In this document: piece by piece, positions 612 through 46,233 of the stretch | Position numbering within the stretch: the stretch's first letter is position 1 | Layout: each line of letters begins with the position of its first letter | DNA from: Candidatus Iainarchaeum sp. | GTDB lineage: Archaea; Iainarchaeota; Iainarchaeia; Iainarchaeales; GCA-2688035 | Length of the DNA stretch: 64,000 nucleotides | Assembly (NCBI GenBank): GCA_017610205.1 | Contig: JAFCCL010000005.1 | Span: 1-64,000 of the forward strand | Direction: 5' to 3' | Translations under genes and position numbers: made by a program | Notes under the pieces: generated by a model | Database searches by the model: none | What the model was told of the DNA's origin: nothing | What the model saw: only the letters and a program-made list of their open reading frames with translations

Positions 612-629
612 TTCACCGGAAGTCTGCTC
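612..629 (+). promoter_or_regulatory. TTCACCGGAA motif upstream of nurA TATA box
   Basis: TTCACCGGAAGTCTGCTC, TTTAAA 29 nt downstream of motif start (641); recurs upstream of other repair genes. Confidence 0.65.
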
Positions 630-670
630 CCCCGCAAGTTTTTAAATGCCCTTTTTCCTTATTTTACTGG

Positions 671-1768
671 ATGGAAATTACAAGTGTAATAAATGAGGCT
701 GTTGCAAGCATTTCTAAACTGGATAGAAAACGAAAGATTTTAAGCGAAAAGCTTTTGCCTTTAACAAAACTAAATTTGCTTGAAGCAGGCTCTCCAGAGC
801 TTGCAGAGGAAAAACTCATAATTCCTGTAGAAAAGTCTTCTTTGAATTCCAAAATTGCAGGCGTTGACTCAGGCTTTGTTGACAAGGACCTTTTTGCATT
901 AGACCTTGTGCTAATAAGGGCAATAGGCGCAGTGTTTAATTACGAAAAAAATAAGCTTGCAAAAGCAGATTACTTTCCAAGCTTTTACACTTTTCCTGAA
1001 CCAAGCCTAAGCAAGGCAGGACTGGAAGCAGACGAGTTTCAGTGCAGCAAAAGCATTCAAAGGCTGATTAAAGAGGTTGAAACAGCAAAAGCACTTATTG
1101 AAAAATTTTCACCAGAATTTTGCTTTTTGGACGGAAGCATTGTTCCGCAGTATGCTGACAAGCCAAGAAAGGGCAGTGCAATTAAAACATCTTATCACGA
1201 AATGCTTGGACAATTTCAATCCCTTTATGTAACTGCGGAAAAAAACAATTGTGAGCTTGTAGGCTGTGTTGAGGACAGCAGAGGCTCTCGTTTTAGGCAG
1301 ATTTTGCAGGAACAGCTTCTTTCAAATCAAAAAAATGTCTCCTGGCAGCTTGAAGGCTGCTATGATGCAATACTTTTGGATTACCTTTTAAAGGAAGGTG
1401 AAAGAAGTTTTGCATTTAGCTATACTGCAAGCACAAGAGAGCATCCAATTCTGATGGATTTTGATGAAAAGTGGTCAAAGAGTGTTAAGGCATTTTACCT
1501 AAAGCCTGTTTTTTTTGACAGGCCTTTGCGTGTTGAATTTTTGCACCAGAACGGCGAAAGCATTTCAATGCATGCGTCAAAAGTTGCTTCAATGGTTTTT
1601 GCCCAAAGCTGCATGCACAGGGAATATGCCTATCCCTCAATTTTAATTGAAGCCGACCTGCATGCGAAGTTACACTCTCAGGAAATAGAGCTTGTTTACG
1701 ACAAGATTTTAAACAAGTTGGGAACGGGATTTAAACTAAGGCTAAGGCGCGACAGCAGGCCGTTTTGA
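671..1768 (+). CDS. nurA: NurA 5'-3' nuclease
   Basis: IAGVDSG, FLDGSI, YAYPSILIEADLHAKL motifs; upstream of herA. Confidence 0.9.
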   Translation: MEITSVINEAVASISKLDRKRKILSEKLLPLTKLNLLEAGSPELAEEKLIIPVEKSSLNSKIAGVDSGFVDKDLFALDLVLIRAIGAVFNYEKNKLAKADYFPSFYTFPEPSLSKAGLEADEFQCSKSIQRLIKEVETAKALIEKFSPEFCFLDGSIVPQYADKPRKGSAIKTSYHEMLGQFQSLYVTAEKNNCELVGCVEDSRGSRFRQILQEQLLSNQKNVSWQLEGCYDAILLDYLLKEGERSFAFSYTASTREHPILMDFDEKWSKSVKAFYLKPVFFDRPLRVEFLHQNGESISMHASKVASMVFAQSCMHREYAYPSILIEADLHAKLHSQEIELVYDKILNKLGTGFKLRLRRDSRPF

Positions 1769-1779
1769 AGGTGTGAAAA

Positions 1780-1959
1780 TTGGATAAAAAAGAAAAAGAA
1801 TTCATTGTCTGCCCTTCATGCGGTTCAACTGACATGTGCTGGCTACTTGGTGGCAAGCTTGGAGACCAGTACAAGTGCGTTAAATGCAATTATGAGGGAA
1901 TTGCCTTAAAGGGCAATGCCAAATTTGTAGCGGAAGTAAAGGAAATTGAAAAAATTTGA
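1780..1959 (+). CDS. Small Zn-ribbon protein (59 aa, not in ORF track)
   Basis: TTG start after GGTGTGA; CPSCGS...YKCVKC; fills the nurA-herA gap. Confidence 0.75.
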   Translation: MDKKEKEFIVCPSCGSTDMCWLLGGKLGDQYKCVKCNYEGIALKGNAKFVAEVKEIEKI

Positions 1960-1969
1960 GTGATTTTGT

Positions 1970-4900
1970 TTGGCTGAAAAGGAAACAGTAAAAGAAAAAG
2001 AGTCTGTAGCGAAAAAAGAACAGGGTGAGGAAAACATTGGAACAGTAATAAGCAGTTTGGAGGGCCCTTCTCCTGGAAGCCTTGATTTTGTTGCAAACAA
2101 GGGTAAGGTTCACAGAGGCCAGTTTGTGGAAATGGATTTTGACTCAGGAACACTTATTGCTCTTGTAAACGATGTTCAAAAAACAAACCGCTACTTTGAA
2201 AGGGCGGATTCAGTAAAAGAATTTGAAAGAAACGGCTCTGCAATGTTTGAACAGTTTCCAACCGCTGAATGGGAATACCTTGTTGCAAAAACAAGACCAC
2301 TGGGTGTTTTCTCCGAAGCAGGAATCAAGCGCGTTACATTTCCGCCAAGTCCTGGAACAAGAATAAGGCTTGCTTCCAAGGAAAATCTTGAACGTTTTTT
2401 GAATTTTGATAAAAACGGGTTATTGCTTGGAGAAGTTGACCACCACAACCTTCCAGTAAAACTTGGCATGTCCTCTCTCTTAAAAAAACATGTTTGTTTC
2501 CTTGCTCAATCCGGTGGCGGAAAATCTTATGCAGTTTCCGTTCTCCTTGAAGAACTTTTGGACAGGCCAAAAGAAAGTGGGCGCATTGCAACAATTGTTT
2601 TGGATCCGCATGGTGAATACAGTTGTTTTGCTACTCCGCCTTCTGAGAAAGGCAAAAAAGATTACAGTTCCAAGACAAGGCTTGTTAAAGCATCAGACAT
2701 AAAAATAGGTGTTCCAAAACTGAGTGTTGGAGTTATTTCAGGAATTCTTCCGGGATTAAGTGCTCCTCAAAAAAGGGATTTGGGCCGCATTCTAAACGAG
2801 TTAAAAGCACAGATGAAAGAAGGTTTGGGTCCGTTTGATTTGAATGACCTAAAGGACTCTGTTGCAAGGGATGAAGCAATAAAGGAAAACAGCAAAGCCC
2901 CCCTATTAGGCTGGCTTGATATGCTTCGCGAGCTAAGGCTTTTTGGCAAAACAGACAATCCAAGCATTCCTGATTTGATAAAACCAGGCAAGCTTACTGT
3001 AATAGACTTGAGTGACACAATAAACCTGAAGAAAAAACAGGTAATTGTAAGCTATTTTGCTCAAAGAATTTTTAACGAAAGGCGCAATAACAGGGTTCCC
3101 CCTTTCCTAATGGTTTTGGAGGAAGCCCACCAGTTCGTTCCCCAAATGGCAAAATCTGAAACAGCAATTTCAAGAAGCATCATAAGGACTATTGCAAGAG
3201 AAGGGCGAAAGTTTGGCGCTTCACTTTGTCTTGTTTCACAAAGACCTGTTCAGCTTGATACCACTGCTTTATCACAGTGCGTTTCGCCAGACACCGAAGT
3301 CCTTCTTGCTGACGGGCAACAGAAATCTATTAGGCATCTGAAAAACTCTTGGAACGAATCGGAAGTTTTAACTTGCAATATATTGGACGGAACTATTGAA
3401 AAGTCTGCAATATCGGCTTATCTGAAAACCAGTCCTTCTTTTGATAAAAAGAAATGTTTTAGGGTTTTATCAGAATCAGGCAGAGAACTTAGTTGCACTT
3501 CTAATCACCCTATTTGGGTAAAAGATAGAGGCTGGGTTAATGCAGGCGATTTACAGAAAGGAGATTTTGTTGCGGTTCTACCAACAGAAAATGATTTCAG
3601 TAAAGAAGCTCATGAATTAAAAATATCTTGGAATGCAATCTCCAGTATTCTTCCCTCAACAATTAATAAGAAAAAACTTTTCAATGAATTGAAAAGCCAG
3701 AAGTTTATTTGTCAAAATATTGAAAGAAAAAAAGTTCTTGCATTGGTCAGGCTGATCGGGCACATATTTGGCGACGGTACTCTCCATCCCCCCTATAAAA
3801 ATTCAGACAACCAACATCTGCTTAGAATCACTTTCTCTGGTTGCGAATCAGATCTTTTAGAAGTAAAAAAAGATTTGCAACTATTGGGTTTTAATACCGC
3901 GCAAAAGATTTGCAGACAGGAAAAAACTTCTTATTCAAATTTCATTAATTTTGGAAGAAGGAAGATAAAAGGCACCAGCACTTCTTTCAAAACAGGAATT
4001 GTTGCTCTTTGGGCTATTTTGAGAATACTGAAAGCTCCTCTTGGCTGTAAAACAGATCACAAAGTTTCTATTCCTTTATGGATAAAGAATGCAGATAAAG
4101 AAGTAAAAAGGGAATTTTTATCTGCACTGTGTGGAAGTGAATGTTCAACTGTTCGTTGGAACAATGGGCGATTTCCTGAAAAGCTTATTCTTCCATTTTC
4201 TAAAATTAGTAATCTTGTTCAAAATGGTGATATTTTTGCATCCCAACTTATGGGCCTCTTTGAAGAATTTGGGGTCAAAACGTCGCTTTACAAAAGAGAC
4301 TACGTTATTAGAAAAGACGGCACAAAAACTATCCAGTTTATTATATCAATTCAAAGAAACAGAAACAATCTCATAAACTTTTTTGGGAATATAAACTATA
4401 GGTATTCTGTTAAACGAAGCCAGGCTGGGCTTTACTCTTTAGAGTGCTTAAAGTGGTTAAATTTCAAGACTTCGGAAAAAATCTGTTTTTGGAAAAAAAT
4501 AAATGGCCTCTCTGTTGACAGGTCACCAAAAGAGATAAGTATTGCCTATAACCTAAATCAAAAAGTGGTCAAGAATTGGCTTTCAATGACCGCTACAAAA
4601 GTTAGACTTGCACCCTCTGACAATATCCCCTCTTTTCATAAGTGGTTGGCAGAAAGGACAGAGGGGCTTTCAGGCGGCTTAATTTGGGACAAAGTGAATA
4701 CTCTTGAACAAGTGGAACTCAAGGATGTTAGAGACATAACAATTCCTAAATACAACTGCTTTTTTGCTAACAGTTTTTTAACCCACAACTGCAACACCCA
4801 CATAATTCTTCGAATAACAAACCCCTATGACCTAAAACACATTGGAGAAAGTTCAGAGGGGCTTGACAGCAAAAGTGTTGACATGATTACCTCTTTAAGG

Positions 4901-5068
4901 GTTGGAGAAGCCCTGCTTGTAGGGGAAGCAACTCATTACCCTCTTTTTTTTAAGGTCAGGAAAAGGAAAAGTGCAGAAAGCAAGCATGAAAAAAGCCTTG
5001 AAAGAGCAGGGCTTGAGTTTGAACAAGGTCTTGAGGAAAAAGATGCTGAAACAGCGGAACTCTTGTGA
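1970..5068 (+). CDS. herA: HerA helicase/translocase with intein
   Basis: HAS-barrel-like N-terminus, Walker A AQSGGGKS, LDPHGEY, LEEAHQF, REGRKFG, SQRP; interrupted by intein. Confidence 0.92.
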   Translation: MAEKETVKEKESVAKKEQGEENIGTVISSLEGPSPGSLDFVANKGKVHRGQFVEMDFDSGTLIALVNDVQKTNRYFERADSVKEFERNGSAMFEQFPTAEWEYLVAKTRPLGVFSEAGIKRVTFPPSPGTRIRLASKENLERFLNFDKNGLLLGEVDHHNLPVKLGMSSLLKKHVCFLAQSGGGKSYAVSVLLEELLDRPKESGRIATIVLDPHGEYSCFATPPSEKGKKDYSSKTRLVKASDIKIGVPKLSVGVISGILPGLSAPQKRDLGRILNELKAQMKEGLGPFDLNDLKDSVARDEAIKENSKAPLLGWLDMLRELRLFGKTDNPSIPDLIKPGKLTVIDLSDTINLKKKQVIVSYFAQRIFNERRNNRVPPFLMVLEEAHQFVPQMAKSETAISRSIIRTIAREGRKFGASLCLVSQRPVQLDTTALSQCVSPDTEVLLADGQQKSIRHLKNSWNESEVLTCNILDGTIEKSAISAYLKTSPSFDKKKCFRVLSESGRELSCTSNHPIWVKDRGWVNAGDLQKGDFVAVLPTENDFSKEAHELKISWNAISSILPSTINKKKLFNELKSQKFICQNIERKKVLALVRLIGHIFGDGTLHPPYKNSDNQHLLRITFSGCESDLLEVKKDLQLLGFNTAQKICRQEKTSYSNFINFGRRKIKGTSTSFKTGIVALWAILRILKAPLGCKTDHKVSIPLWIKNADKEVKREFLSALCGSECSTVRWNNGRFPEKLILPFSKISNLVQNGDIFASQLMGLFEEFGVKTSLYKRDYVIRKDGTKTIQFIISIQRNRNNLINFFGNINYRYSVKRSQAGLYSLECLKWLNFKTSEKICFWKKINGLSVDRSPKEISIAYNLNQKVVKNWLSMTATKVRLAPSDNIPSFHKWLAERTEGLSGGLIWDKVNTLEQVELKDVRDITIPKYNCFFANSFLTHNCNTHIILRITNPYDLKHIGESSEGLDSKSVDMITSLRVGEALLVGEATHYPLFFKVRKRKSAESKHEKSLERAGLEFEQGLEEKDAETAELL
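3278..4789 (+). mobile_element. Intein (504 aa) with LAGLIDADG endonuclease in HerA
   Basis: SQ|CVSPDT start, block B TSNHPI, LIGHIFGDG, FLSALCGSE, ends LTHN|CNT. Confidence 0.92.
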
Positions 5069-5188: not shown

Positions 5189-6415
5189 ATGGTTTCACGA
5201 TTGGATGTTTTTTTGACTGTTGGCCTTTACCCTGGGCTTTCCTGTGCAGACATTGTCAAAAAAATAGGCAAGGCCCAGACATCTTACAATGCAACATATA
5301 ATCTTCTCCGAGAACTAAAAGCTGACGGATTAGTTGTGGAAAAGAAAGAATCCTTTAGTGCTTCAAAAACAAAAAAGGCGCACATGCTTCTTAGCTTGGT
5401 TTACTTTTGCTTCAAAAACGGAGTTGATTACAACAAAGTTATTTCAGAAAAAAGCGCTGAGTTCGTCAAAATGGGCTTGGAAAAAGGTCAAATAGACGGA
5501 TTGCCTTTTGATGCAAAAACAGTCAGGAGAATTGTTGCCCAGCTTTCGAAAAACGGTTTTGCTATTGTTGAGTCAAGAAAGCCTTTTTCGTGCAAAATTG
5601 TTCCATCGCAGTTCACTCAATTGCTTGTGCACTACTTTTTTGGGGAAACTAAAGTTAAATGCCCTCTGCTGTTAGATTGCTTGAATGAACGGTTTGTTAA
5701 TTCCAAGCTTGAAAAACAGTTTTCCTCATACAAGAGCCTTGAAAAAGAAAAATTCGCCTTTGACGAAATAGGGTTTATTCACGTAAGCCTTTCCCTTGAA
5801 GGCAACACCCTTACATTGTCAGAGACTGAAAAGATAATCAAACAAAACATTGCCCCTGCGTCAAAACCATTCAAAGACGCGCAACAGGTGCTCGATTATA
5901 AAAAAGCGCTTGATGGCTTTATTTTCTCTAGCAATGCACTCACGCGAGAATCGACTCTTGAATTTCACAGAACAGCAATGAATTCTTTGCCTGCAGGTGC
6001 AGGCCAGTTTAGAACAGAAAACATCAGGATAAAAGGCAACCCTAACTTTAAAACCCCTGACTGGAAAGAGCTTCCTGAGCTTTTAAGGGATTTTTTCAAG
6101 AACGCAAACGTCCAGGAAAAGAAAAAAGTTTCTGCTGTTGAAATAGTTGAAAGGGCTGCCTTTTTGCATAACGAATTCCAGCGCATCCATCCATTCATTG
6201 ATGGAAACAGTAGAGCAGCAAGGGCAATATTCCTAAAAGCACTAACCCAAACCAATTTTCCTCTAATAAAAACACCTGTGGGCTTTTCCGACCAATACAT
6301 GAAACTCACAAAACTAAGCAAAAAAAGAGACAACAAAAAATTTGCCCTCCTGATGAAACAGATAGCTCTCGAAAACCTAAAACACATAATAAAAAGACTC
6401 GAATACGAATTCTGA
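5189..6415 (+). CDS. Fic family protein with N-terminal wHTH-like region
   Basis: Fic motif HPFIDGNSRAAR; inhibitory (S/T)xxxE(G/N) motif SLSLEGN. Confidence 0.9.
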   Translation: MVSRLDVFLTVGLYPGLSCADIVKKIGKAQTSYNATYNLLRELKADGLVVEKKESFSASKTKKAHMLLSLVYFCFKNGVDYNKVISEKSAEFVKMGLEKGQIDGLPFDAKTVRRIVAQLSKNGFAIVESRKPFSCKIVPSQFTQLLVHYFFGETKVKCPLLLDCLNERFVNSKLEKQFSSYKSLEKEKFAFDEIGFIHVSLSLEGNTLTLSETEKIIKQNIAPASKPFKDAQQVLDYKKALDGFIFSSNALTRESTLEFHRTAMNSLPAGAGQFRTENIRIKGNPNFKTPDWKELPELLRDFFKNANVQEKKKVSAVEIVERAAFLHNEFQRIHPFIDGNSRAARAIFLKALTQTNFPLIKTPVGFSDQYMKLTKLSKKRDNKKFALLMKQIALENLKHIIKRLEYEF

Positions 6416-7163: not shown

Positions 7164-7194
7164 TTGGAACACCGGAAATCGCTTAGGGCAAAAA

Positions 7195-7212
7195 TTCACC
7201 GGAAACCTGCTC
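7195..7212 (+). promoter_or_regulatory. TTCACCGGAA motif upstream of polB2-like gene (partial second copy CACCGGAAA at 7170)
   Basis: TTCACCGGAAACCTGCTC, TTTAAA 30 nt downstream (7225). Confidence 0.65.
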
Positions 7213-7256
7213 TCTTTCCTTCTTTTTAAAAGCTGCAAAAAACCTATTTTTTCATA

Positions 7257-8762
7257 ATGGAATCTCCCACACCCCTCTGGCTAACTGATGTTAAATATAT
7301 GGAGGGCAAAAAGGCTATTGCAGCCGAATTCTCCCGGTTAAACTTTAGGAGAATGGTCAGGCTGTCCTTTTTTCCTTCATTTTTTTCTGAAAAAAAAGTT
7401 TTGAACATTTTCAACTTACAAAAAATCCTTTCTCAAAGCAATGAAAGGTTTACTATTCTTGATTCAGGCAATTCCTTTAAAATTTCATCAGCAACCTTTT
7501 CAGGTTTGATTAATCTTGCAGATATTTTGTTCAACGAAACAGGCTTTAGGCCACTTGTTCTGAATCCTGAAAGGCAGTTTTTGATTGAAAAAAACTGGAC
7601 TTACTTTGATTGTTTTACCTCTTTCTCTGGGAAAGAAATCTTAAAGCCCGGCTTTGCTTCTGTTCCGGTTGCAAAGTTCGGGCTTTTCTCAGAGGCCTTG
7701 CCTGAAACAATCAGACTTGCTGCAGAAGAAAGTTCTGAACTTGCAGAAAAAATTCTTGAATCAATTGCATTAAGTAAAATTCTTAAAATGCCACTTCAAG
7801 ACATTTCACATTTGGAGTTTGCTCAGGCTGAAGCTTTTCTTGAAAATGCTTTTTGGAAAACAGGATTTGGCAGGTTTTTTCAGTTAAAACAATCTGACAA
7901 AACCAAAACAACAGGCTTTCGCACAAAAGGCCTTTCCGAAATAGATTTTAGCATGCTTTGGCCAACACTGTTAACAAGTCCTTTTTACAATCTTAGTCCT
8001 GATTCAATAAACTGTAACTGTTGTAAGCCAAAAAATGCTTTGGAAAAAAACATTTTGCCAAGCACTCTTGCTGTTGTTGAAATGAAGCAGGACGGCTTTT
8101 TTTTTGAATCGTGTTCTTCTTCATTTTCTCGCAATTTTCATAAAACAATGTCTGGAAAGGAAAGCAGGCTTCGAAGAATGCAGGAATTTTATCTTAAAGA
8201 TATCCCACTAGGTCCTTTTTTCAGATTGCAGCAAGTTTCACTTCCTTTAGCAGATGCCCTAAAGCTTGCTTCTGCGAAAAAAGCCAGAATTTTAAAACAT
8301 GAATTACTTCAATGGTTTTGCCTTAAAAAAGAGGGCTCAGTTTCCAAAGCAGTTTTACATATGAACAGGACTCTTTCATTGCTTGATTCAATTTCGGATA
8401 AAGCAAGTTCTTCTGCATTAAAAGAATATGGTGTTCTTTCCCAATTAAAACTTTCAACAAATCCTGATTTTTTGCTTTGCAATGCATTGCTCAAAACAGG
8501 CACAAGGCTTCTTTGTGCAATTCCTGAACACTTGTGCAGTTCAGAAAGCGCTTTTTTTAATGAACGCCTTTGTTTTGCAATTGAATCTGTAAAATCAAGC
8601 GTTCTTGAAAACTTTGCGGATTTTGCAGGAAAAAGGGAAAGCAGGGTTGTTGCAACAGGAAAAAACAAGGCTTTTGTAAAAAGTACAAGACCACTTTCAC
8701 TAATAAGGCAATTTAGCAAAAAACAGCACATTCCTGCCCTTTTAAGGGCAAAAAGCAGGTAG
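7257..8762 (+). CDS. Degenerate family B DNA polymerase (PolB2-like, probably inactive)
   Basis: EIDFSMLWPTLL...YNLSPDSINCNCC resembles PolB motif A and the PolB2 NISPETxxCxCC segment; no KxxxNSxYG or YGDTDS motif. Confidence 0.7.
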   Translation: MESPTPLWLTDVKYMEGKKAIAAEFSRLNFRRMVRLSFFPSFFSEKKVLNIFNLQKILSQSNERFTILDSGNSFKISSATFSGLINLADILFNETGFRPLVLNPERQFLIEKNWTYFDCFTSFSGKEILKPGFASVPVAKFGLFSEALPETIRLAAEESSELAEKILESIALSKILKMPLQDISHLEFAQAEAFLENAFWKTGFGRFFQLKQSDKTKTTGFRTKGLSEIDFSMLWPTLLTSPFYNLSPDSINCNCCKPKNALEKNILPSTLAVVEMKQDGFFFESCSSSFSRNFHKTMSGKESRLRRMQEFYLKDIPLGPFFRLQQVSLPLADALKLASAKKARILKHELLQWFCLKKEGSVSKAVLHMNRTLSLLDSISDKASSSALKEYGVLSQLKLSTNPDFLLCNALLKTGTRLLCAIPEHLCSSESAFFNERLCFAIESVKSSVLENFADFAGKRESRVVATGKNKAFVKSTRPLSLIRQFSKKQHIPALLRAKSR

Positions 8763-9379: not shown

Positions 9380-9472
9380 TTCTTATTTTTCAATCGTCAC
9401 TTTGAATTCATAATTACATTCTTATTTTTCAATAGTTACTTCTAATTCATAGTTACATCTTTATTCTTCAAT
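9380..9472. repeat. 39-bp degenerate tandem repeat derived from the rad50 3' end
   Basis: TTCTTATTTTTCAAT... at 9380 and 9419; third copy at 9458 overlaps the rad50 stop codon. Confidence 0.8.
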
Positions 9473-11524
9473 TGGCACAAGAACCGGTTTTGTTGCTGCA
9501 TCGTCGTCTTTTTCCCTTTCAAGAATATAAAGTGAGGCAGAAGCAGCCTTTTTCATTTCACTATTGTGGGTTATTACAAAAACCTGTTCCACAATTGAAG
9601 GCAAATGCAATTGCATCATCTTTCCCAGTGTTTCAACCGCCGCAGTATCTAAGTTGTGTGTTGGCTCATCTAAAATAAGCCAGCTTAGGTTTCTTGCAAG
9701 TACCAGTGAAAAGGCAATTCTAATGCATATTGCTGCAGCGCTTCTTTCTCCCCCGCTTAAAATTCCTTCAACCCTAACCCAGTTTCCGCCTTTTTCTTTT
9801 GCTTTTAATTCATAGCTTCCTTTTTCAACATCCATTTTTGCCGAAACATAATCCTTATAGGGGTAAATTCTTTGCCAGATATCATGCATTGCTTCGTTGA
9901 TTGTTGCAATAAGCATTTCTCTTAATTCTGCCTGTGCTGCAATCAGACTGTTTTCAAAAAATTTCATGTTTTCAAAACCTGATTCAAGTGCCTTTATTTT
10001 TTCTTCCCATTCAATAATTTGCTTTTTTGTTTTTTCAATTCTTTCAATTCCTGTTTTTATCTCTTTTACAAGTTGAAGATTTGCTTCAATTTCTTTCTTT
10101 GCCGATTCAGCGCCTGCTTTTGTTTCAATTGCCTTTTTTCTTTTATCCAAAAGCTCTTTTTCATCAAAATTAATTTCTTTAAAACATTTCTCAAGAACAG
10201 CGATTTCTTTTGCAATATTTTCCACTTGCCGTTCCTTTTCTGCAAGCTTAACAATAGCTTCTTTTAATTGCCCAAGCTTTATCTCTTCTTCCCTTGCCTT
10301 TTCCTTTTTTGCTGTTGATTCTTCCAGTTCCCTTTTTAGTTTTTCAATTATAACATTTGCCTCGGCTTCTTTTTTCAGCGTTTCTTCAAATTTTGTGCTT
10401 GCTTTCCTAATTCCTTCCTCTGTCTCCTGCACAAGCTTTTCCCTTGTCTTAATTTCAAGTTTTTGCCTGCAGGTGGGACATTCTGCTCCAAGGCCTTTGA
10501 ATTCTTTTAAGTGTTCATTTAGTTCCTCTGCTTTCTTTTGGCTTAATGCTGCTTCTTTTCCAAACCCTGTCTTTTTCTTTCGTTCCTCTTCCTCTTTTTT
10601 CTTTGAGTCCAAAATCTTTTTTTCCAATTTCTTAATTTCTTTTTCCAGGGCTTCTTTTTCTTTTTTAATTTCTTCCAAACTTTTTTTGCCGGCTTCTTTT
10701 TTTGTTTCTTCAACTGTCTTTTCAAGTTCTGATATAATTGCTTTTTTTGCTCCAAGCTCTTCCTTAATTTTCCTAAATTCTTTTTCCTTTTCCTCCAATG
10801 CCTTAATCTCTTTTACAAACCATTCCACTTCCAGTGTCTTTCTCCTGGCTTTTTCTTCAAGCGTTTTGTTTTCTTTTTCTTTTGCCCCAATTCTTTTCAA
10901 AAGCTCTGTTTCCCCTTTTTTATCCAAAGAATCCTTTTGTTCCTTTACAAGTACTGCCTTAGCTTTTGCCATTGTCCTAAGTTTGTTTGAAGCACTTACT
11001 GCATTTCCTCTTACAACCTCGTAGCGTTGCAAATCCAACAATTCGTCAAATTTTGTTTTCCTTTCACTTGGAGTTAATCGCAAAAAGGAATCTATTTCAT
11101 TTTGCTCACTGTATACTGCTCTGCTGAACAAATTGTAATTAATTTCAATTGCCTTTTCAACTGCTTTGTTTACATCTCTTGGCTTTGGCCCTGCCAAAAC
11201 CCTGCCATCACACCAAATCTTTGCTTCTGTGCTTCCCTTCTTTTTAATTTTTCTTTCAACCCTGTAATCTTTTTTCCCATAAGAAAATGCAAGTTCAACA
11301 ATTGCCTCCTCTGCCTGATGCGGTTTGGTCATTATAACCTCCTCAAGGGAAACCCTTCTGCTTTGCAGGCTTGGGAAGGTTCCAAATAAGGCAAAACAAA
11401 CAGCGTCCATTACTGAACTCTTACCGCTGCCCATTGCGCCTATGAGTACATTGGTTCCTTTTCCAAATTCAAAAGAACTGTCATAATGGGTTTTCCATCC
11501 TTTAAGATTTATGCTTTCAATCAT
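9461..11524 (-). CDS. rad50: Rad50/SbcC-like SMC ATPase with zinc hook
   Basis: Walker A GAMGSGKSS, coiled coils, central CPTC hook, LSGGE, LILDEPT, ITHN. Confidence 0.88.
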   Translation of the reverse strand: MIESINLKGWKTHYDSSFEFGKGTNVLIGAMGSGKSSVMDAVCFALFGTFPSLQSRRVSLEEVIMTKPHQAEEAIVELAFSYGKKDYRVERKIKKKGSTEAKIWCDGRVLAGPKPRDVNKAVEKAIEINYNLFSRAVYSEQNEIDSFLRLTPSERKTKFDELLDLQRYEVVRGNAVSASNKLRTMAKAKAVLVKEQKDSLDKKGETELLKRIGAKEKENKTLEEKARRKTLEVEWFVKEIKALEEKEKEFRKIKEELGAKKAIISELEKTVEETKKEAGKKSLEEIKKEKEALEKEIKKLEKKILDSKKKEEEERKKKTGFGKEAALSQKKAEELNEHLKEFKGLGAECPTCRQKLEIKTREKLVQETEEGIRKASTKFEETLKKEAEANVIIEKLKRELEESTAKKEKAREEEIKLGQLKEAIVKLAEKERQVENIAKEIAVLEKCFKEINFDEKELLDKRKKAIETKAGAESAKKEIEANLQLVKEIKTGIERIEKTKKQIIEWEEKIKALESGFENMKFFENSLIAAQAELREMLIATINEAMHDIWQRIYPYKDYVSAKMDVEKGSYELKAKEKGGNWVRVEGILSGGERSAAAICIRIAFSLVLARNLSWLILDEPTHNLDTAAVETLGKMMQLHLPSIVEQVFVITHNSEMKKAASASLYILEREKDDDAATKPVLVPIEE

Positions 11525-11582
11525 TCCAGAATCCCGATAACAAGTATACCCCCAAAACCGCTTTTAAAGGATTTGAAAGAAG

Positions 11583-11594
11583 GCTTCCTGTGAA
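11583..11594 (-). promoter_or_regulatory. Variant motif TTCACAGGAAGC upstream of rad50
   Basis: One mismatch to TTCACCGGAAG, same orientation as the gene, TTTAAA 26 nt downstream. Confidence 0.5.
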
Positions 11595-36640: not shown

Positions 36641-36654
36641 TTTTTAGGCCCCTG

Positions 36655-37138: not shown

Positions 37139-37208
37139 TTCATTTTACCTCCTTGAGTTTTGTTTTAATTGTATTTTATTTAATTTTTGTAATTTATAAA
37201 CGTTTCTT

Positions 37209-37373
37209 TTAAGGTGTTGCTGCTTCTCCTGCCTTGATGTTTGCCTGGTTTGCTGCTTCTGCCGCTGCATTTTTTAGAAGCACTCCTACAATGCTTACAA
37301 GTACTATTGCGCCTGCGATTAGTACAAGCATTTCAATGCTTCCCTGAGCCTTTTTCTCTTTTAAAAAACCCAT
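37209..37373 (-). CDS. Small class III signal-peptide pilin
   Basis: KEKKA|QGSIEMLVL. Confidence 0.8.
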   Translation of the reverse strand: MGFLKEKKAQGSIEMLVLIAGAIVLVSIVGVLLKNAAAEAANQANIKAGEAATP

Positions 37374-37389
37374 TTTTTTCACCTTATTA

Positions 37390-38325: not shown

Positions 38326-38327
38326 GT

Positions 38328-39497
38328 TTATACCTTTGGTTGTGAGCTTTTTATATAAAATAAAAATATTATTAAAATAAATGGCATTATTACTAAAAAG
38401 AATGCTGCCATTATTGGTATGCCTAGTGGCAGCATTTCAAAGCTTGGCATGCTTGCTTTTATTGGGCTGTTTCTAATGCTTCCAAGTATTGCAACCATTA
38501 CTGGCATTACAATTGCTCCAAATATAAAAACAACTCCGAAAAAGTTCATTCTTTGTCCAAACTCGCTTACTGCAAGCCTTAGGTTGAATGAAACATCTTC
38601 AGCTATGTCGTTCATACTTTCGCTTAATCTTCCGCCTGTTTTTAATGCTCTTACTATGTGAACAATTGCGCTTCTGAGTGACTTGCTTTGTGTTCTTAAT
38701 GCAAGGTGCCTTAGTGCTTCTTGCGTATCAGTTCCTTCTTCTACTTCTGTTATAACTCTTGCAAATTCTTCACTTAATTCTCCATAGTCTGCCATTCCAA
38801 TTGCCTGTATTGTTCTGTAAAGTCCTATTCCTGCTCTTATTTCTGTTGCCATGTGCCTTAGTGCAAATGGAAGTTCTAGGCTTACTGCGTTTCCTCTTGC
38901 AACTGCTTTTTGTTTTGGAACAATGAGTATTATTATTGCTGTTATAATGAATGACAGTACTGCGATAAGAATTACTGCAAGTACTCTTGTTACTATTTGA
39001 ATGTCCAGAATTGTCATCACTGCTGCTGAAATAAGCAGGCTAATAATGAATACAATTGCTGATGCTGCAACTGTTAGTGCAACATATTGCTTACTGCTGT
39101 AATGCATATTTGCGCTGTAAAGATAAAAGGTAACCATTTCAAATTCGGGAAATTTTAGTATTACTTTTGCAACCGGTTTCAAAATTCCGCCAAGTTTTAG
39201 GTAAATTCCCGCCAGCAATTTTACCATTTTGCTTTTGACTTCTCTGAGCTCTTCAATGGTTTGTATTTCAATTTTTGCTCCCATGCCTTCTGCTATAAGG
39301 CCTCTTAGTTCTCTGAGGTTTCCTCCAACCTCTTCAAATTCAACTCCTTCTGCTCTGTATTTTTCACGCATTCTTTTTACAATTTTTTCAACCTTTTCCA
39401 TGTCAACTTCTATTGGTTCGTTTGAACCAGTAGCTCCTTTTTTTCCCTTGGCTTTTTTTTGTGAAATATTGCTTTTCAGTTCGTCAAGTTTTGCCAT
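38328..39497 (-). CDS. TadB/TadC-family membrane platform protein
   Basis: ELPFALRHMATEIRAG, YGELSEEF, GGRLSESMNDIAED. Confidence 0.9.
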   Translation of the reverse strand: MAKLDELKSNISQKKAKGKKGATGSNEPIEVDMEKVEKIVKRMREKYRAEGVEFEEVGGNLRELRGLIAEGMGAKIEIQTIEELREVKSKMVKLLAGIYLKLGGILKPVAKVILKFPEFEMVTFYLYSANMHYSSKQYVALTVAASAIVFIISLLISAAVMTILDIQIVTRVLAVILIAVLSFIITAIIILIVPKQKAVARGNAVSLELPFALRHMATEIRAGIGLYRTIQAIGMADYGELSEEFARVITEVEEGTDTQEALRHLALRTQSKSLRSAIVHIVRALKTGGRLSESMNDIAEDVSFNLRLAVSEFGQRMNFFGVVFIFGAIVMPVMVAILGSIRNSPIKASMPSFEMLPLGIPIMAAFFLVIMPFILIIFLFYIKSSQPKV

Positions 39498-42400
39498 TTA
39501 TTTTCCCCTGTATACAAATTCGCTTGTTTTTTTCTTAACCTCTTCCATTCCCCTTACTCCTTCTTTGCATATTCTTTCAAGGAAAACCTGTCTTTGATTC
39601 AAATTATCTTTAACTGCCTGCCTGCTTAATCCTGTAAAGTCTTGCAGTATTTTCAGAAACTTTATTGGAATATCTGTTTTTTCAAGCTTGTCTTTAACCG
39701 GGTCTCTTGCAAAAATTGTTTGGGTTTGCGCATGCTTTAAGAGAACGCCGCTTAATTCTGCAATTTCTGTAATTCTTCTTATTGTTCCTTTTCTTTTGTC
39801 GTGAATTTTGTGTTCAATAATTATAATGTCAAGACCTGAGAGCATTACCTCCGGAACGTTCATTGGCGGTGAGGTTACTCTAACAATTGTTTCCTGTGGA
39901 GAATTTGCATGGATTGTTCCCAAACAGTTTGAAACAATTATTCCGTTTGCGATATAATTATGGTTTCCTTCTACTGTTAAATCATAAACATCGCCTTCAA
40001 ATTCTTCTTCTTTAATTGAAACAATTTCTTCAAATCTTGTATCTGATTGTTCCATAATTTTTAACTGTTTTGAAGTTTCGTTTTGCAGCAAATCGCATAT
40101 TTTTGCAAGCTGTTTTCTTGAAGGTCTCCTGGCACTTGTTTCATATGACCTGATATTGCTGCCTGTTGTTGCTCCAAGCAAGGCTCCCAATTCATCCTGT
40201 GTAAATCCTGCTTCAAGCCTTGCATTTTTGAGTGTTCTTTCCATATTTGGAAACAAATCAAGGCTGTTTTTTGATTTTTTGACAAGTACTTCTAATTTTT
40301 CTTTTTTCTTTTTGTGTACAAATCCGATTTTTTCTTCAAACTTTTCAAGATTGTCTTTTCCATAGATTGATATTCTATAATAGGGTCTAATGTTTCCTTT
40401 ACCGTCTTTTTCCTGGGCATATGTTGACGAGGTTATACCAAATCTCATCAAAATTATTGGAAGTTTTCTTGCAAGGTCTTTGTTTGCTGTGCTGAACTGG
40501 ATGCAGTTTGCAAACAGGTTTACGTGGGCTTCACAGTCATATAATCCTTGTAAAAGCAAGGCTATTCCGCTGTCTTTTGCCGTAAGTGTTTTTTCAGTCA
40601 TTTTGAAGATTTTTGTTTTGTTTCCAATTGGCATTTCATATTCTTTATTTATTTTTTTAATCAGTTTTTTATCGCAAATCTGCACTCTTGAAAATCCCTC
40701 ATAATCAAATCTGCTTATTTTGTTTTCAGTCAATGGCAAAATTTCTTCTTTAAATTTTTTGATTAATGATTCTTCTTTGTTGACAAATTGAATTGCTTCT
40801 ATGCCAAGGTGTCCATCGCCATAAATCAAACCTGTGAGATAGGGCTGTAGTAGCTTTTTTTCAGCTTCAATTTCTATTCCTGTTGGAATAGCAATAAAAT
40901 TTCCTGTTTTTGCCTCGCATGCATTGATTTCCTGCAATCCATTACTGATTTTGTAAATCGGGTGGTCTTTTGTAAGTAAAAGTTCTTTTCCGCTCTTAAG
41001 CCTGATTTTACACAACTTTTCTTTTGTGCGTTTTCTCCAGACATGTGTTACTTTTTTGTTTTCAATTTTTAGGGTTTGTTTGTTTAACGATGGCACCATA
41101 ATTTTTTTGCCTGTTTCAACAAATTCAAAGTTACCTTCTTTCACAGGGTCTTTTTCTTCAAATTCTTTTTCTACAAGGTTTGCTATTTCGGAAATATTTC
41201 CATCGGAAAGTTGTATTAATGTGTTTCCAATTACCGCTCCATCGTGACCTGTATTTAGTGCTGTAAATAATGTGAATGCTTCATCGTGCCTTACTTCTCC
41301 GACAATTATTCTGTCTGGCCTCATTCTCAAACTGTTTTTTGTCAAAACGTCAAGTGTTAATTCGCCTTTTCCTTCAAGTCCTGGTGGCCTTGCTTCCAGT
41401 CTTACCCAATGCTTTAACGGCAAAGCAAGTTCTGCAGTGTCTTCTATTGTAACAATTCTTTCAGTATCCGGAATGAATGCTGCAAGGCAGTTTAATGTTG
41501 TTGTTTTTCCTGACCCAGTTCCTCCTGATATCAGGATGTTTGCCGGTTTTGCTCCAAGTCCGTCAACGCACAACCATAGGAAGGCTGCTGCTTCTGCTGA
41601 AATTGTTCCGTTTTTTATAAGGTCTACTATAGTGTAAGGGTCTTTTCTAAATTTTCTGATTGTAAGAGTTGCGCCTTCAACAGAGGCTGGTGGAATTGTT
41701 GCATTTACTCTGCTTCCATCAGGCATTCTTGCATCAAGCAATGGCGAGCTTATGTCAACACGTCTTCCGACATTTCTTGCAATTCTGTTAATCAAATCAA
41801 TTATTTCTTTGTCTGAATAAAATTCAATATTGCTTGACATCATTTCATATTTTCTGTGAAAAAGGTAAACTGGTTTTTTTGCTCCAATAACCATAATTTC
41901 TTCAAGGTTGTCGTCTACTACAAGTGGGTCTATAATTCCGTAGCCAACCATTTCTCTTATAACTGATTCTGCATAAAATGGAAACCTTCTTTCAGGAATG
42001 TGGAGTTCCGGGCTGTTTCTTAGAATTTCAAGAACACGCTGTCTGTAAACATTTCTTCGCTGTTCAATATCCCGTACTTTGTATGGGGTGATTGCAATTA
42101 GTCTTGTGGCAGCCTCTTTTATTGTGTTGATTACTGCTTTTTCCTGCTTGGTTGGTCTTGCCACTGGCACAACATAGTATGGCAGTGATTTTCCTGGCAC
42201 ACTGTAAATTTTTACGTTTGAATATTTTTCAATAAGTTTTTTTTCAGGTGCTGTTTCAAGTTCTTTTTCAACTGTACTTTTCTTTTTTTCGTCAGTTTCT
42301 TCAACAATTTCTTCTTCTGGAGGAAGTTCTGGAACTTTTTCCCGAATCGGTTTTGCTTCAGGTTCTGTTTTTACAATCGGTTTTGTTGCAGGTTCTGTAG

Positions 42401-42581
42401 CAGGTTCTGTTTTTGGCTTTGTTTCCGGTTTTGGAACGTGGCCTTTCTTTATTTGTTCAATTTCTTTTGGAACTTTTGCTCCCTGCTCTGCCTTTTTTGG
42501 GGCTTTTTCAGTTTCCAGTTCTTCTTTTTTAGCCAGCTTTACCTTTTTTATAAGGTCTGCCAAATAGTCTTCTTCTGCCAT
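39498..42581 (-). CDS. KlbA/CpaF-type pilus assembly ATPase with intein
   Basis: LDARMPDGSRVN, GGTGSGKTT, LRMRPDRIIVGEVR, TGHDG|intein|CLGTIHAN. Confidence 0.93.
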   Translation of the reverse strand: MAEEDYLADLIKKVKLAKKEELETEKAPKKAEQGAKVPKEIEQIKKGHVPKPETKPKTEPATEPATKPIVKTEPEAKPIREKVPELPPEEEIVEETDEKKKSTVEKELETAPEKKLIEKYSNVKIYSVPGKSLPYYVVPVARPTKQEKAVINTIKEAATRLIAITPYKVRDIEQRRNVYRQRVLEILRNSPELHIPERRFPFYAESVIREMVGYGIIDPLVVDDNLEEIMVIGAKKPVYLFHRKYEMMSSNIEFYSDKEIIDLINRIARNVGRRVDISSPLLDARMPDGSRVNATIPPASVEGATLTIRKFRKDPYTIVDLIKNGTISAEAAAFLWLCVDGLGAKPANILISGGTGSGKTTTLNCLAAFIPDTERIVTIEDTAELALPLKHWVRLEARPPGLEGKGELTLDVLTKNSLRMRPDRIIVGEVRHDEAFTLFTALNTGHDGAVIGNTLIQLSDGNISEIANLVEKEFEEKDPVKEGNFEFVETGKKIMVPSLNKQTLKIENKKVTHVWRKRTKEKLCKIRLKSGKELLLTKDHPIYKISNGLQEINACEAKTGNFIAIPTGIEIEAEKKLLQPYLTGLIYGDGHLGIEAIQFVNKEESLIKKFKEEILPLTENKISRFDYEGFSRVQICDKKLIKKINKEYEMPIGNKTKIFKMTEKTLTAKDSGIALLLQGLYDCEAHVNLFANCIQFSTANKDLARKLPIILMRFGITSSTYAQEKDGKGNIRPYYRISIYGKDNLEKFEEKIGFVHKKKKEKLEVLVKKSKNSLDLFPNMERTLKNARLEAGFTQDELGALLGATTGSNIRSYETSARRPSRKQLAKICDLLQNETSKQLKIMEQSDTRFEEIVSIKEEEFEGDVYDLTVEGNHNYIANGIIVSNCLGTIHANSPQETIVRVTSPPMNVPEVMLSGLDIIIIEHKIHDKRKGTIRRITEIAELSGVLLKHAQTQTIFARDPVKDKLEKTDIPIKFLKILQDFTGLSRQAVKDNLNQRQVFLERICKEGVRGMEEVKKKTSEFVYRGK
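39927..41237 (-). mobile_element. Ala1 (class 2, KlbA-type) intein, 437 aa, with LAGLIDADG and Cro/C1-like HTH
   Basis: Starts AVIGNT, TKDHP, GLIYGDG, LQGLYDCE, LKNARLEAGFTQDELG, ends IVSN|C. Confidence 0.9.
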
Positions 42582-44366: not shown

Positions 44367-44469
44367 ATTCAAAAATAAGCCCCTAACCTTATTTAAAATT
44401 GTGGTAATTTGCCTTTGCAGCCTTATTTCCACAGATACAATAAAATACTACTTCATCGGCATTTATAGT

Positions 44470-45258
44470 ATGGCAAGATTCCGTAAAAGAAAAACCCCTG
44501 CTCTTTTGCTTGAAAGAAGGGCAGCTGGAAGAGATGACATAAGGGAAAGAAATTGGAGCGAAAACCCTTTGGGAGAAGCCTTTACCAAAGAACAACTACA
44601 TGAGAAAACAAAACGCCTTAAGTTCTATGAGTCTATGGAGGAAGCAGGCAACCCAAAGCAGTACAGGCAGCACAAGATACTTCAGGGAAGGATAGCGCGT
44701 TTTATTAAAGCAAGGCCAAGTAGGCACTTGGGTATGGAAATTGTAAAAGGCCAAAAGCACGGCTATTACTACGTTAAAATAAAGAGTATTTCAACAGACC
44801 AGCCAATATTTATCAGGCTAGATAGGCCACACTTTAAGGAAGCGGTCAGCTTCCTGGAAAAAGGAAAGTCTACTGGAGAAATCCCTGAAATTTTGCGTGA
44901 AAGAAGACCGATTCGTGAAATGGATGACGTAACAAAAAGAGATTGGAGCAAAAACCGCTTGGGAAAAGTCTTTACCAAAGAACCAAAGAACCTAAAATTG
45001 TGTAGGTTTTATGCAACTCAAGAACAATTAGGTAATCCAGAGCTGTACAAGCAGCACAAACTGTTTGAGAAAAAAATAAGGTATTTAATTAGCGCCAGGC
45101 CAATTAGGGATAGCAGCATGACCATTCTGAAAGGCCGGTTTGGCAAATACTATGTTCGAATAAGCAGCAATCGAACAGACAGCTCTATATTAATCAGAAT
45201 AGACGAGCCAGTCTTTAAAAAGGCAGTCAAGTTCCTGGAAAAAAGTGGAAAAGCCTAG
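44470..45258 (+). CDS. Hypothetical basic protein made of two tandem ~110-aa homologous domains
   Basis: DD..R.WS.N.LG..FTKE...GNP..Y.QHK...ARP.R...YYV.I.S..TD..I.IR.D.P.FK.AV.FLEK occurs twice. Confidence 0.75.
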   Translation: MARFRKRKTPALLLERRAAGRDDIRERNWSENPLGEAFTKEQLHEKTKRLKFYESMEEAGNPKQYRQHKILQGRIARFIKARPSRHLGMEIVKGQKHGYYYVKIKSISTDQPIFIRLDRPHFKEAVSFLEKGKSTGEIPEILRERRPIREMDDVTKRDWSKNRLGKVFTKEPKNLKLCRFYATQEQLGNPELYKQHKLFEKKIRYLISARPIRDSSMTILKGRFGKYYVRISSNRTDSSILIRIDEPVFKKAVKFLEKSGKA

Positions 45259-46124
45259 GCGCCTTCCCTGTAAATTTTAACAATCATTACAACTGAAGCA
45301 AGTTCAATCCAGATTCCTAAAACAATCCCAATTATTGCTGTTGGGTCAACCATTTGTACCATTACAACAAGGCCGCCAACAATTCCCATTAAGAGCAGTG
45401 CTCCAAAATTTCTTAAATAATTTGCTTTTCCTGCTTCGTATCCTTTTCTAACACTTTCCAAAGCTGGTTTTTTTCCAAACACTGCTGTTGGAAACCATAG
45501 GAAAACTAGTGGGTTTACAAAAAGCATTATTGTTGCCATAACCGAAAATGCCAAACCAAGTACAACAAATACAGGTATTAGCCCATTAATTAATACTTCT
45601 GTAGAGTTTGATGCAAGTGCATTTGTAACAATATCCACTGGCAGTATATTTGTGCCAATTATGAATGACATTGCCGGAACTATTATCAAAAGCATTATGA
45701 TTGCACTTACAAGCATTTCAAGCAGGGAAACGCCAACAAGCGTTTGCCATTTTCCAAAAGCAAATCTTAAGTTTTCTTCAATTGAAACCTTTTTTTCTTT
45801 AATGTATTGGCCAAGGCTTTTGTAATAAAAACCGTTGATAATTGACAATGCCACAACAAACAATACAAGTAATACAAACACCCCAATTACTACGACTGCA
45901 ATTAACGGCGCAATAGTTCCTATTGCGGCAAATCCTGCGCCTATTACAATAAATGGCAGTGAAACAATTCCAATTGCAATCATTGCAATTATTCCAAAAA
46001 CAATTGCCATTAGCGGAACTACAAAAATGTTCAAGTCAAAGGTTGTTTTGATTGACTCTGAAAAAAGCTCTACTGCTCCGGCTGTTTTTTTCACAGCTTT
46101 TTTCGCAGTCTTTTTCCTTGGCAT
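45255..46124 (-). CDS. Multi-pass membrane protein
   Basis: About 6 hydrophobic segments. Confidence 0.8.
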   Translation of the reverse strand: MPRKKTAKKAVKKTAGAVELFSESIKTTFDLNIFVVPLMAIVFGIIAMIAIGIVSLPFIVIGAGFAAIGTIAPLIAVVVIGVFVLLVLFVVALSIINGFYYKSLGQYIKEKKVSIEENLRFAFGKWQTLVGVSLLEMLVSAIIMLLIIVPAMSFIIGTNILPVDIVTNALASNSTEVLINGLIPVFVVLGLAFSVMATIMLFVNPLVFLWFPTAVFGKKPALESVRKGYEAGKANYLRNFGALLLMGIVGGLVVMVQMVDPTAIIGIVLGIWIELASVVMIVKIYREGA

Positions 46125-46164
46125 AATGCATTATTACCGTGTTTCCTGAATAAATAACTTTCCA

Positions 46165-46182
46165 TTCACCGGAAACCTGCTC
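46165..46182 (+). promoter_or_regulatory. TTCACCGGAA motif upstream of nre
   Basis: TTCACCGGAAACCTGCTC identical (18/18) to 7195-7212; TTTAAT 30 nt downstream. Confidence 0.7.
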
Positions 46183-46233
46183 ACTGCTTACTATTTTAAT
46201 TCATTAATTAAAGAAATAATATAGTGGTAAAGA

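Follow-up and report, generated by a model that had tools for sequence, protein, structure and literature searches.

The window considered here is the opening 64-kb stretch of contig C1 in a genome (source genome, G000; 1.37 Mb, 24 contigs, 92% complete) assigned to Candidatus Iainarchaeum, and we will focus on a short DNA box that precedes the TATA box of several of its genes, including nurA-herA, rad50 and nre. From its distribution in this genome and in related ones, the box is very probably a directional operator of about 20 bp abutting the TFB-recognition element (BRE) and the TATA box, and serving a lineage-wide regulon of double-strand break repair, recombination and replication. The Iainarchaeota, formerly Diapherotrites, are a DPANN lineage. 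The G+C content, from base counts, is about 38% in the window and in the genome alike, and the nearest radA loci of the named genome collection come from 'Candidatus Iainarchaeum' and from unclassified archaeal metagenome-assembled genomes (MAGs), with 70% to 94% identity.

Four exact copies of the motif TTCACCGGAA are present in the window, and the exact form TTCACCGGAAR is found at 612, 7195, 13935 and 46165, on the + strand in each case. A copy with one mismatch, TTCACAGGAAG, lies at 11584–11594 on the − strand, upstream of rad50. A first-pass annotation of the window had reported these five sites together with a half copy at 7170, and all of them were recovered at their positions. The sites at 7195 and 46165, which it had described as identical over 18 of 18 nucleotides (nt), indeed share TTCACCGGAAACCTGCTC without a difference. 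The sites and the genes behind them are as follows, the scores being those of a position weight matrix (PWM) presented below.

612..631, + strand: main box TTCACCGGAAGTCTGCTCCC, upstream of nurA; 28.6 bits
671..5068, + strand: nurA (671–1768), then intein-bearing herA (1970–5068); Pfam NurA, DUF87/HerA and Intein_splicing
7170..7180, + strand: secondary site CACCGGAAATC, a partial copy, its core 27 nt upstream of the main-box core
7195..7214, + strand: main box TTCACCGGAAACCTGCTCTC; 34.1 bits, the top-scoring site of the genome
7257..8762, + strand: gene of a protein of 501 amino acids (aa) with a family-B DNA polymerase (PolB) fold; fold-level evidence
9461..11524, − strand: rad50; SMC_N, AAA_23 and SbcC Walker B
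11575..11594, − strand: weaker box TTCACAGGAAGCCTTCTTTC, upstream of rad50; 19.2 bits
13935..13954, + strand: main box TTCACCGGAAACTCAGAGTC, preceding a free-standing gene of LAGLIDADG type; 22.5 bits
14004..14849, + strand: free-standing gene resembling LAGLIDADG homing endonucleases; 281 aa if started at the ATG of 14004
46165..46184, + strand: main box TTCACCGGAAACCTGCTCAC, upstream of nre; 31.4 bits
46234..47463, + strand: nre; Nre_N and Nre_C

At all five reported sites, a TTTAAA-type box starts 26–30 nt past the motif start, and the near-fixed TATA spacing claimed in the first-pass annotation is thereby borne out. In the 612 promoter, TTTTTAAA begins about 27 nt and the ATG 59 nt after the box start; the corresponding values are about 28 nt (TTTTTAAAA) and 62 nt for the 7195 box, 26 nt (TTTAAAA) and 70 nt for the rad50 box, and about 28 nt (TATTTTAAT) and 69 nt for the 46165 box, while CTTAAAAA is found at about +30 of the 13935 box. 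The transcription unit of the 612 box is likely composed of nurA and herA, and an alpha/beta hydrolase gene located directly after nre (47467–48258) may be co-transcribed with it. Neither rfcS (− strand, start 51658) nor topA (start 58662) has a site listed upstream in the genome-wide PWM scan, in agreement with the earlier annotation of both genes as lacking the motif.

When up to one mismatch is allowed, the window contains six matches against 1.69 expected, a number reached in one of 100 shuffles. With regard to chance, the count in the window alone is suggestive only, and it is the whole genome that settles the question. A further one-mismatch match, at 20372–20382 on the − strand, is probably due to chance, since it lies within the TYW3 coding region and is not followed by a TATA box.

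Box structure and genome-wide occurrence

In the 1.37-Mb genome, TTCACCGGAA occurs as 15 exact 10-mers compared with one for the reversed control, and 13 of the 15 have a promoter-like context. Site alignment places it as the core of a directional box of about 20 nt, TTyAsCGGAArCCyrCTCTc, whose information is highest at CGG, the flanking A residues and three C of the tail. The first-pass annotation had described a near-palindromic TTC-N4-GAA site, a description that has to be given up, since the conserved, informative core is asymmetric (CGGAAr...CTC) and the promoter-type sites are in gene sense in every case. On the 3' side, the box is followed by one to three variable bases, often by a BRE-like aAAGyG, then by the TATA box and the start codon. 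Its end lies about 2–9 nt ahead of the BRE-like sequence or TATA box, and its informative columns fall 10–30 nt upstream of TATA. As the start codon is mostly 57–72 nt past the box start, we infer that the mRNAs of these promoters are largely leaderless.

The PWM has 21 columns and was built from 28 sites; its scores are partly circular, the source sites scoring highest, whereas the 10-mer count and the orthologue test described in the next section are not. It yields 39 matches of at least 14 bits in the genome, 30 of which are followed at the fixed offset by a TATA-like box, compared with one to seven matches, none with a TATA-like box, for each of five column-shuffled PWMs. About 30–35 promoters of the source genome carry the box next to BRE/TATA. 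Furthermore, in 10 of 27 promoters of this genome the best upstream core match is found exactly 27 or 28 nt further up. Seven of these ten second sites score at least 7 bits, and the ten include the half copy at 7170.

Target genes and conservation in relatives

The open reading frames (ORFs) downstream of the sites were annotated with Pfam and NCBIfam, and the 27 promoters scoring at least 19 bits were taken as a strong set. Eight of them belong to host replication or repair units, namely, nurA-herA, rad50, radA, a Hel308-like helicase, nre, mcm, priL and the 501-aa PolB-fold gene. Two precede DNA methyltransferases, one Eco57I-like and one of the N6_N4 type; seven precede free-standing LAGLIDADG genes (14004–14849 among them), two short helix-turn-helix (HTH) ORFs resembling LAGLIDADG N-termini (C16:51894 and C2:3500), and four TnpB (IS605 OrfB) genes, one of which is truncated. 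The remaining four comprise a PIN protein, a DUF7718 protein, a 188-aa protein without assignment and a double site without an ORF. No metabolic, translation or membrane genes were found behind these 27 sites. Weaker sites with a TATA box precede genes for Hef, the ERCC4 helicase-nuclease (11.2 bits), an SSB/RPA-like OB protein (13.2 bits), a Cas4-like PD-(D/E)XK nuclease (14.8 bits) and a further HTH-LAGLIDADG fragment (16.6 bits). No site precedes the Hjc-related endonuclease gene or either orc1/cdc6 gene of the source genome.

The first-pass annotation had proposed a cis-element shared by DNA-repair genes at fixed spacing upstream of BRE/TATA and defining a regulon, and this proposal holds in the genome at large; the shuffled PWMs and the list of targets likewise agree with a motif that is not common at non-repair genes or in coding DNA. 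The repair targets of the proposed damage-repair regulon are also retained, but not its restriction to repair. Since MCM and PriL are members, and MCM is so across the order, the regulon would cover replication together with recombination and repair, and be wider than damage repair alone. Its signal may be DNA damage, as in the SOS-like regulon of the first-pass annotation, or the replication cycle.

Two members of the strong set deserve a description of their own. The gene of the 188-aa protein (C14:33352–33918, − strand) has a box of 32.8 bits, and its product, which has no match in Pfam or NCBIfam, shows by eye an IIDIET and an H-x4-D-like motif, reminiscent of DEDDh 3'-5' exonucleases. The double site at C16:6214–6261 consists of two full boxes (6214 and 6242) 28 nt apart, then a TATA box, and is located beside tRNA-like sequences. 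Downstream of it, no ORF of at least 45 aa is found, a 25-aa ORF followed by a T-run being possible; no Rfam family was recognised (best E-value 0.34), and the predicted fold is no better than that of shuffled sequences (z 0.39).

The orthologues of four targets were collected from 40 relatives, which span 19 families of one order and are non-independent samples. With the source genome left out, a region of 150 nt upstream plus 30 nt of the gene was scanned with the source-genome PWM at a threshold of 8 bits or more, giving the following counts.

PolB-fold gene: sense matches in 23 of 28, TATA at the fixed offset in 23, antisense matches 0
nurA: sense matches in 21 of 26, TATA at the fixed offset in 21, antisense matches 0
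mcm: sense matches in 13 of 27, TATA at the fixed offset in 13, antisense matches 1
nre: sense matches in 11 of 27, TATA at the fixed offset in 9, antisense matches 0

With twenty shuffled PWMs, the mean number of matches per gene set was 0.2 or lower. The conservation upstream of orthologues that the regulon first proposed would entail is thus observed for all four genes, with no more than one antisense match. Many of the low-scoring orthologues have, by eye, recognisable variants of the box at the same place. PolB-fold orthologues, in many relatives, and mcm orthologues likewise have the second site 27–28 nt upstream.

With regard to radA, the box was counted by eye in 13 of 42 fetched loci, all from close relatives of the Iainarchaeota type in named MAGs; one locus labelled Micrarchaeota has a similar layout, and loci labelled Woesearchaeota or Nanoarchaeota among the 42 had no box by eye. 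In five genomes of distant families (G025, G027, G030, G032 and G036), reading of the PolB-fold, nurA and mcm upstream regions by eye revealed that CAsCGGCAr replaces CGGAAr at two to three promoters per genome. Such a coherent shift from GGAA to GGCA within one genome is as expected if one trans-acting factor had changed its specificity.

The word ACCGGAAAYC was also followed in single genomes. In G040, which belongs to another family, six of seven fetched sites are of promoter type, and these precede a PolB-fold orthologue (35% identity), a PD-(D/E)XK nuclease gene and a DUF7718 gene. The enrichment of the word in G037 and G030 was rejected as a sign of the regulon, the sites being mostly coding or due to chance (promoter-like in 0 of 8 and 1 of 7, respectively); in G038, one of eight fetched sites is promoter-like. 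In other respects, a second conserved word, (A)TTCTCCCA(A), is present about 60–70 nt upstream of the mcm box in G017, G020, G021, G032, G033, G035, G038 and G040, which belong to several families, and is absent from the source genome.

The PolB-fold protein and the mobile genes

The 501-aa protein encoded at 7257–8762 has no match in Pfam, NCBIfam or the PDB sequences, and its database relatives are all labelled 'hypothetical protein'. The family is present in 37 of 41 genomes (the source genome and the 40 relatives), where its gene is usually directly downstream of nurA-herA. A profile made from 20 orthologues retrieved the Pyrobaculum family-B polymerase 5mdn_A with an E-value of 7.6e-5, and the AlphaFold (AF2) model, with a predicted local distance difference test (pLDDT) score of 87, has only PolBs as its top Foldseek matches; that with 5mdn_A has an E-value of 6e-11, a probability of 1.0, a template-modelling (TM) score of 0.55 by query length and about 10% identity. 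A protein atlas search was uninformative (best score 0.77). On this profile and model evidence, the protein is a divergent representative of the family-B DNA polymerase fold. In the 20 orthologues, whose sequences were read by eye, D230-F-S-x-L-W-P, which resembles motif A (DxxSLYPS), is at least 90% conserved, and the DTD of motif C was not seen by eye in their alignment, D333-A334 being conserved instead. The family also has an invariant C-x-C-C cluster (C253, C255 and C256).

The gene had been called polB2-like in the first-pass annotation, a name that profile and Foldseek results support at the level of the fold, membership of the PolB2 group itself being putative. For PolB2 proteins, inactivated archaeal family-B polymerases, a role in repair or replication regulation has been proposed, and a link exists with arORC2 genes and, among bacteria, with lexA (PMC4104785, excerpt). 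The 501-aa protein resembles them in its family-B fold, but with about 500 aa it is far smaller, its identity to solved PolBs is about 10% and it has no Pfam match; moreover, its gene neighbours nurA-herA. The operon partners described for PolB2 are arCOG07300 and an inactivated RadA. As for the immediate surroundings, a gene for a 408-aa Fic/DOC-domain protein (5189–6415) is located between herA and the PolB-fold gene in the window, and in G006, G003 and G010, judged by gene coordinates, nurA-herA and the PolB-fold gene are too close to each other to accommodate it.

Mobile or selfish genes account for about half of the regulon of the source genome. The first-pass annotation had noticed the box ahead of one LAGLIDADG core, which is correct as to the box but not as to a single case. 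The product of that gene, 14004–14849, has a weak LAGLIDADG_3 match at 14346–14573 and also matches NCBIfam models of intein-bearing proteins in their intein parts, with both LAGLIDADG motifs discernible in the alignment. The LAGLIDADG proteins under the box are 11% to 23% identical to the first of them, and by eye the acidic residues of both motifs are kept in most; they look like active endonucleases, not like domesticated regulators. A role as WhiA-like domesticated regulators was considered and is unlikely in view of these mostly kept acidic residues and of the lack of one-to-one conservation.

The TnpB copies of the source genome are 73% to 85% identical to the query; their upstream likeness starts at about the secondary site, and both sites lie within the conserved left flank. 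In the relatives, the box is present at eight of ten readable TnpB upstream regions, including those of two TnpBs from other families with 37% to 38% identity, and the two regions lacking it have a different flank, nearly identical between them. Since the LAGLIDADG proteins are only 11% to 23% identical and the TnpBs with a box are as little as 37% to 38% identical, the sequences indicate that the box at mobile genes is not the result of recent duplication.

In other respects, the genome is very rich in inteins: LAGLIDADG_3 has 22 matches, the majority of which fall within large genes that look split. Genes of the intein type include those for HerA (1970–5068), MCM, the RFC small subunit (48773–51658), a T2SSE/pilus ATPase and others. 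The pilus ATPase (39498–42581), whose intein also has an HTH_3 domain, is part of a type IV pilus/archaellum-like cluster at 34656–42581 on the − strand, which contains class III signal-peptide proteins, a prepilin peptidase, two T2SSF genes and this intein-bearing ATPase. A second T2SSE ATPase is encoded at 17786–19393.

Candidate regulators, mode of action and related systems

It is very likely that a protein binds the box. We propose that a single sequence-specific DNA-binding protein would occupy it in a fixed orientation and that, at some promoters, a second copy of this factor would sit on the weaker site 27–28 bp upstream. Because the box is located immediately upstream of BRE/TATA, the factor would help TFB and the TATA-binding protein (TBP) to load, and so activate transcription. 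The breaks made by homing endonucleases are repaired by copying from an intact template, and those made by TnpB likewise. For the LAGLIDADG and TnpB genes with a box, cleavage would be tied to the time at which the host recombination machinery is expressed, a box common to radA, nurA-herA, rad50 and the selfish nucleases confining cutting to recombination-competent times.

The best candidate for the binder, to be taken as tentative, is an Orc1/Cdc6 paralogue, which was considered in view of the likeness of the box to a single origin-recognition box (ORB). Two Orc1/Cdc6 paralogues are encoded in 37 of the 41 genomes, and in many of them the divergent paralogue lies within 60–90 kb of nre and the PolB-fold gene. 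The ORB motifs, as found in the excerpts of the published work, are CTTCCAGTGGAAACGAAAGGGGT for Archaea (PMC4153887 Table 2), TT[TA]CACTTGAAAT[GTA]T[CT][CG]TC for Methanobacteriaceae and [TC]TCCAGTGGAAA[TC][GA]AA[AG]CTC for Thermococcaceae (both PMC4164010). In an ungapped alignment made by eye, the box sequence TTTCACCGGAAACCTGCTC agrees with the Methanobacteriaceae motif in 14 of 19 positions; the Thermococcaceae and pan-archaeal consensus sequences align to it with gaps only, and the G-string GGGGT is absent. ORB or mini-ORB elements resemble the box in length and in layout, namely, TTC..(N)..GGAAAy with a short spacer and a C/G-rich tail, and their directional binding by a monomer (PMC6742236, excerpt) would fit the strict orientation of the box. 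Unlike the box, which is single or paired at about 30 promoters, ORBs are clustered around an AT-rich unwinding element by orc1. An Orc1/Cdc6 protein that binds promoters as an activator of damage genes is known in Saccharolobus, namely, Orc1-2 (PMC6061795, excerpt). In a bolder form, which we regard as rather speculative, the Orc1/Cdc6 paralogue would be a master regulator of replication and recombination genes acting through single ORB-like boxes, and the box would have been copied by homing endonucleases and TnpB so that they cut only when homologous recombination, on which their own copying or retention depends, is on.

As an observation on gene order, the succession of the PolB-fold gene (C1:7257), nre (46234) and the divergent orc1/cdc6 (78124), spanning about 60–90 kb, is conserved across families and also found in G004, G014, G023, G030, G035, G037 and G038. 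This stretch may be an origin-proximal region, and no origin was recognised in it.

Other candidates were set aside. The only trace of an E2F-like factor is a sub-threshold E2F_TDP match (19.7 bits) inside a 989-aa frame, and DUF7718, considered as an autoregulated factor, is patchy (22 of 41 genomes) and multi-copy. The HTH_3 ORF at C16:51894, which follows the second-best site, is likely the N-terminal piece of an HTH-LAGLIDADG gene, since a LAGLIDADG fragment follows at C16:52847–53101, and does not represent a conserved factor. Nothing links the Lrp gene of the window (56733–57206) to the box.

Several points weigh against the interpretation developed so far. With the source-genome PWM, the nre and mcm orthologues exceed the threshold in only about 40% to 50% of relatives; the ORF calls are crude and self-made, their start codons being guesses; and the radA count, the GGCA variant and the ungapped ORB alignment were all read by eye. 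With regard to Orc1, the source genome has no origin-like group of boxes (at least three sites within 800 bp; at 92% completeness, a gap is possible), no canonical ORB in the intergenic DNA of this incomplete assembly and no box upstream of either orc1 gene, and no cluster of boxes or ORBs was seen beside the orc1 genes of G037 and G038, for which the ORF calls are crude. Recognition of the box by either paralogue therefore stays putative. Both paralogues are nearest the initiator-type Orc1-1 (2qby_A, 4e-67 and 1e-53), compared with 1e-13 and 4.5e-15 for the Aeropyrum pernix ORC2 (1w5s), as judged by score. Covariation of the Orc1 winged helix with GGAA or GGCA, for which six GGAA genomes including the source genome were set against four to five GGCA genomes per paralogue, gave a few discriminating columns, none convincing and all confounded by phylogeny. 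Finally, a protein bound there could just as well mask the BRE and thereby act as a repressor.

This last possibility amounts to a repressor operator resembling those of LexA or DdrO, which would shield the BRE until a signal such as DNA damage arrives, and we consider it a serious, if less likely, rival. The end of the box is only about 2–9 nt from the BRE-like aAAGyG or the TATA box, within potential reach of a footprint; bacterial damage regulons are classically based on repression, and selfish nucleases are expected to be silent most of the time. In archaea, however, sites upstream of BRE/TATA are typically activating, and it is those over or downstream of TATA that repress; among the listed sites, the box never lies over the TATA box or the start site, and tight repression is unlikely for the essential MCM and PriL. 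Activation rather than repression by the factor thus appears slightly favoured. The fixed spacing to TATA could alternatively reflect an extended promoter element for a second TFB or TBP, and an alternative TFB had been suggested as binder in the first-pass annotation. In Sulfolobales, TFB3 is a TFB paralogue with a role in damage or cell-cycle programmes. Programmes of this kind driven by TFB paralogues of that order are described in an excerpt of bioRxiv 10.64898/2026.09.06.749720. The source genome, in contrast, has a single TFB ORF with two TFIIB repeats (C17:32877–33422; at 92% completeness, a gap is possible), the informative bases lie 10–30 nt upstream of TATA and thus outside a BRE, which would be placed immediately (6–7 nt) upstream of TATA, and a second copy 27–28 nt further up does not fit such an element, so that an alternative basal factor is scarcely credible and the earlier suggestion is dropped.

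The likeness to published ORB motifs, together with the absence of a conventional ORB cluster from the source genome, would also be compatible with boxes that are dispersed single ORBs, or Orc1 landing sites, without a transcriptional role and incidentally located at promoters. This is highly unlikely, since the promoter-type sites without exception are turned towards their gene and keep a fixed distance from TATA, the targets are functionally coherent and some 30 scattered single sites do not make up the architecture of an origin. It is also very hard to regard the box as a promoter cassette spread by TnpB, insertion sequence (IS) or homing-endonuclease genes, with the host copies left by insertion and decay. 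About half of the targets being mobile and the TnpB copies holding both sites in their conserved left flank would suit such an origin, but the box is kept at the host PolB-fold, nurA, mcm, nre and radA promoters across 19 families, it stands at host promoters in genomes without a match to the TnpB query as well, and these promoters share no flank likeness with IS ends outside the box.

Archaea are devoid of LexA and, to our knowledge, Sulfolobales are so far the only archaea in which a dedicated repair regulon has been characterised along with its operator. This Orc1-2 system of Saccharolobus islandicus, with its DNA damage-responsive element (DDRE), is the closest known to that described here, from which it differs in element, orientation and target set. 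Both have a short conserved promoter element of damage genes near the basal promoter, and binding by Orc1/Cdc6 has been demonstrated for the DDRE (PMC6061795, excerpt). The latter is a hexanucleotide, ANTTTC, within AATAGTTTCRGWDTACTCWS (PMC6061795, excerpt), whereas the present box has about 20 nt, another sequence and the opposite orientation to the gene. The opposite strand of the box reads GTTTCC, which is close to ANTTTC yet has G as its first base; ANTTTC is not found on the coding strand, which reads GGAAAC. The DDRE targets include upsA, upsE, tfb3 and cedA1 (PMC6061795, excerpt), compared with NurA-HerA, RadA, Rad50, MCM, PriL and the PolB-fold protein in the present case. Furthermore, both Orc1 paralogues are here nearest Orc1-1, and the regulator is only a candidate. 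In the literature searched, no published description of this box, nor of any promoter element or repair regulon in DPANN archaea, was found.

In bacterial damage regulons, such as LexA/SOS and the radiation/desiccation response motif (RDRM) with DdrO in Deinococcus, one cis-element unites recombination and repair genes, and prophages and integron integrases also place themselves under this element. The present regulon resembles these and the mycobacterial PafBC, as far as the excerpted sources go, in its single cis-element with mobile elements hooked in. It differs from them in a box that is upstream of an archaeal BRE/TATA and asymmetric rather than palindromic, and in having the replicative helicase and primase as members. 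In eukaryotes, the E2F and MBF regulons of the G1-S transition co-regulate MCM, primase and Rad51 genes via one promoter element. The grouping of MCM, primase and recombinase genes under one element is thus shared with E2F/MBF, but no E2F_TDP protein was found in the source genome.

The box represents a ready-made probe for the regulator of an uncultured phylum, which the coherent GGAA/GGCA change could help to pin down by covariation, and its target list draws attention to repair genes that have so far gone unannotated, those of the PolB-fold family and of the 188-aa protein. The recombination programme of the host appears to have been joined by homing endonucleases and by TnpB, from which Cas12 descends. 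If the binder is an Orc1/Cdc6 protein, promoter control by origin-recognition proteins would reach well beyond Crenarchaeota, and if such a protein is indeed the master regulator, origin recognition, a eukaryote-like S-phase and repair programme, and the control of selfish nucleases would be joined in one circuit.

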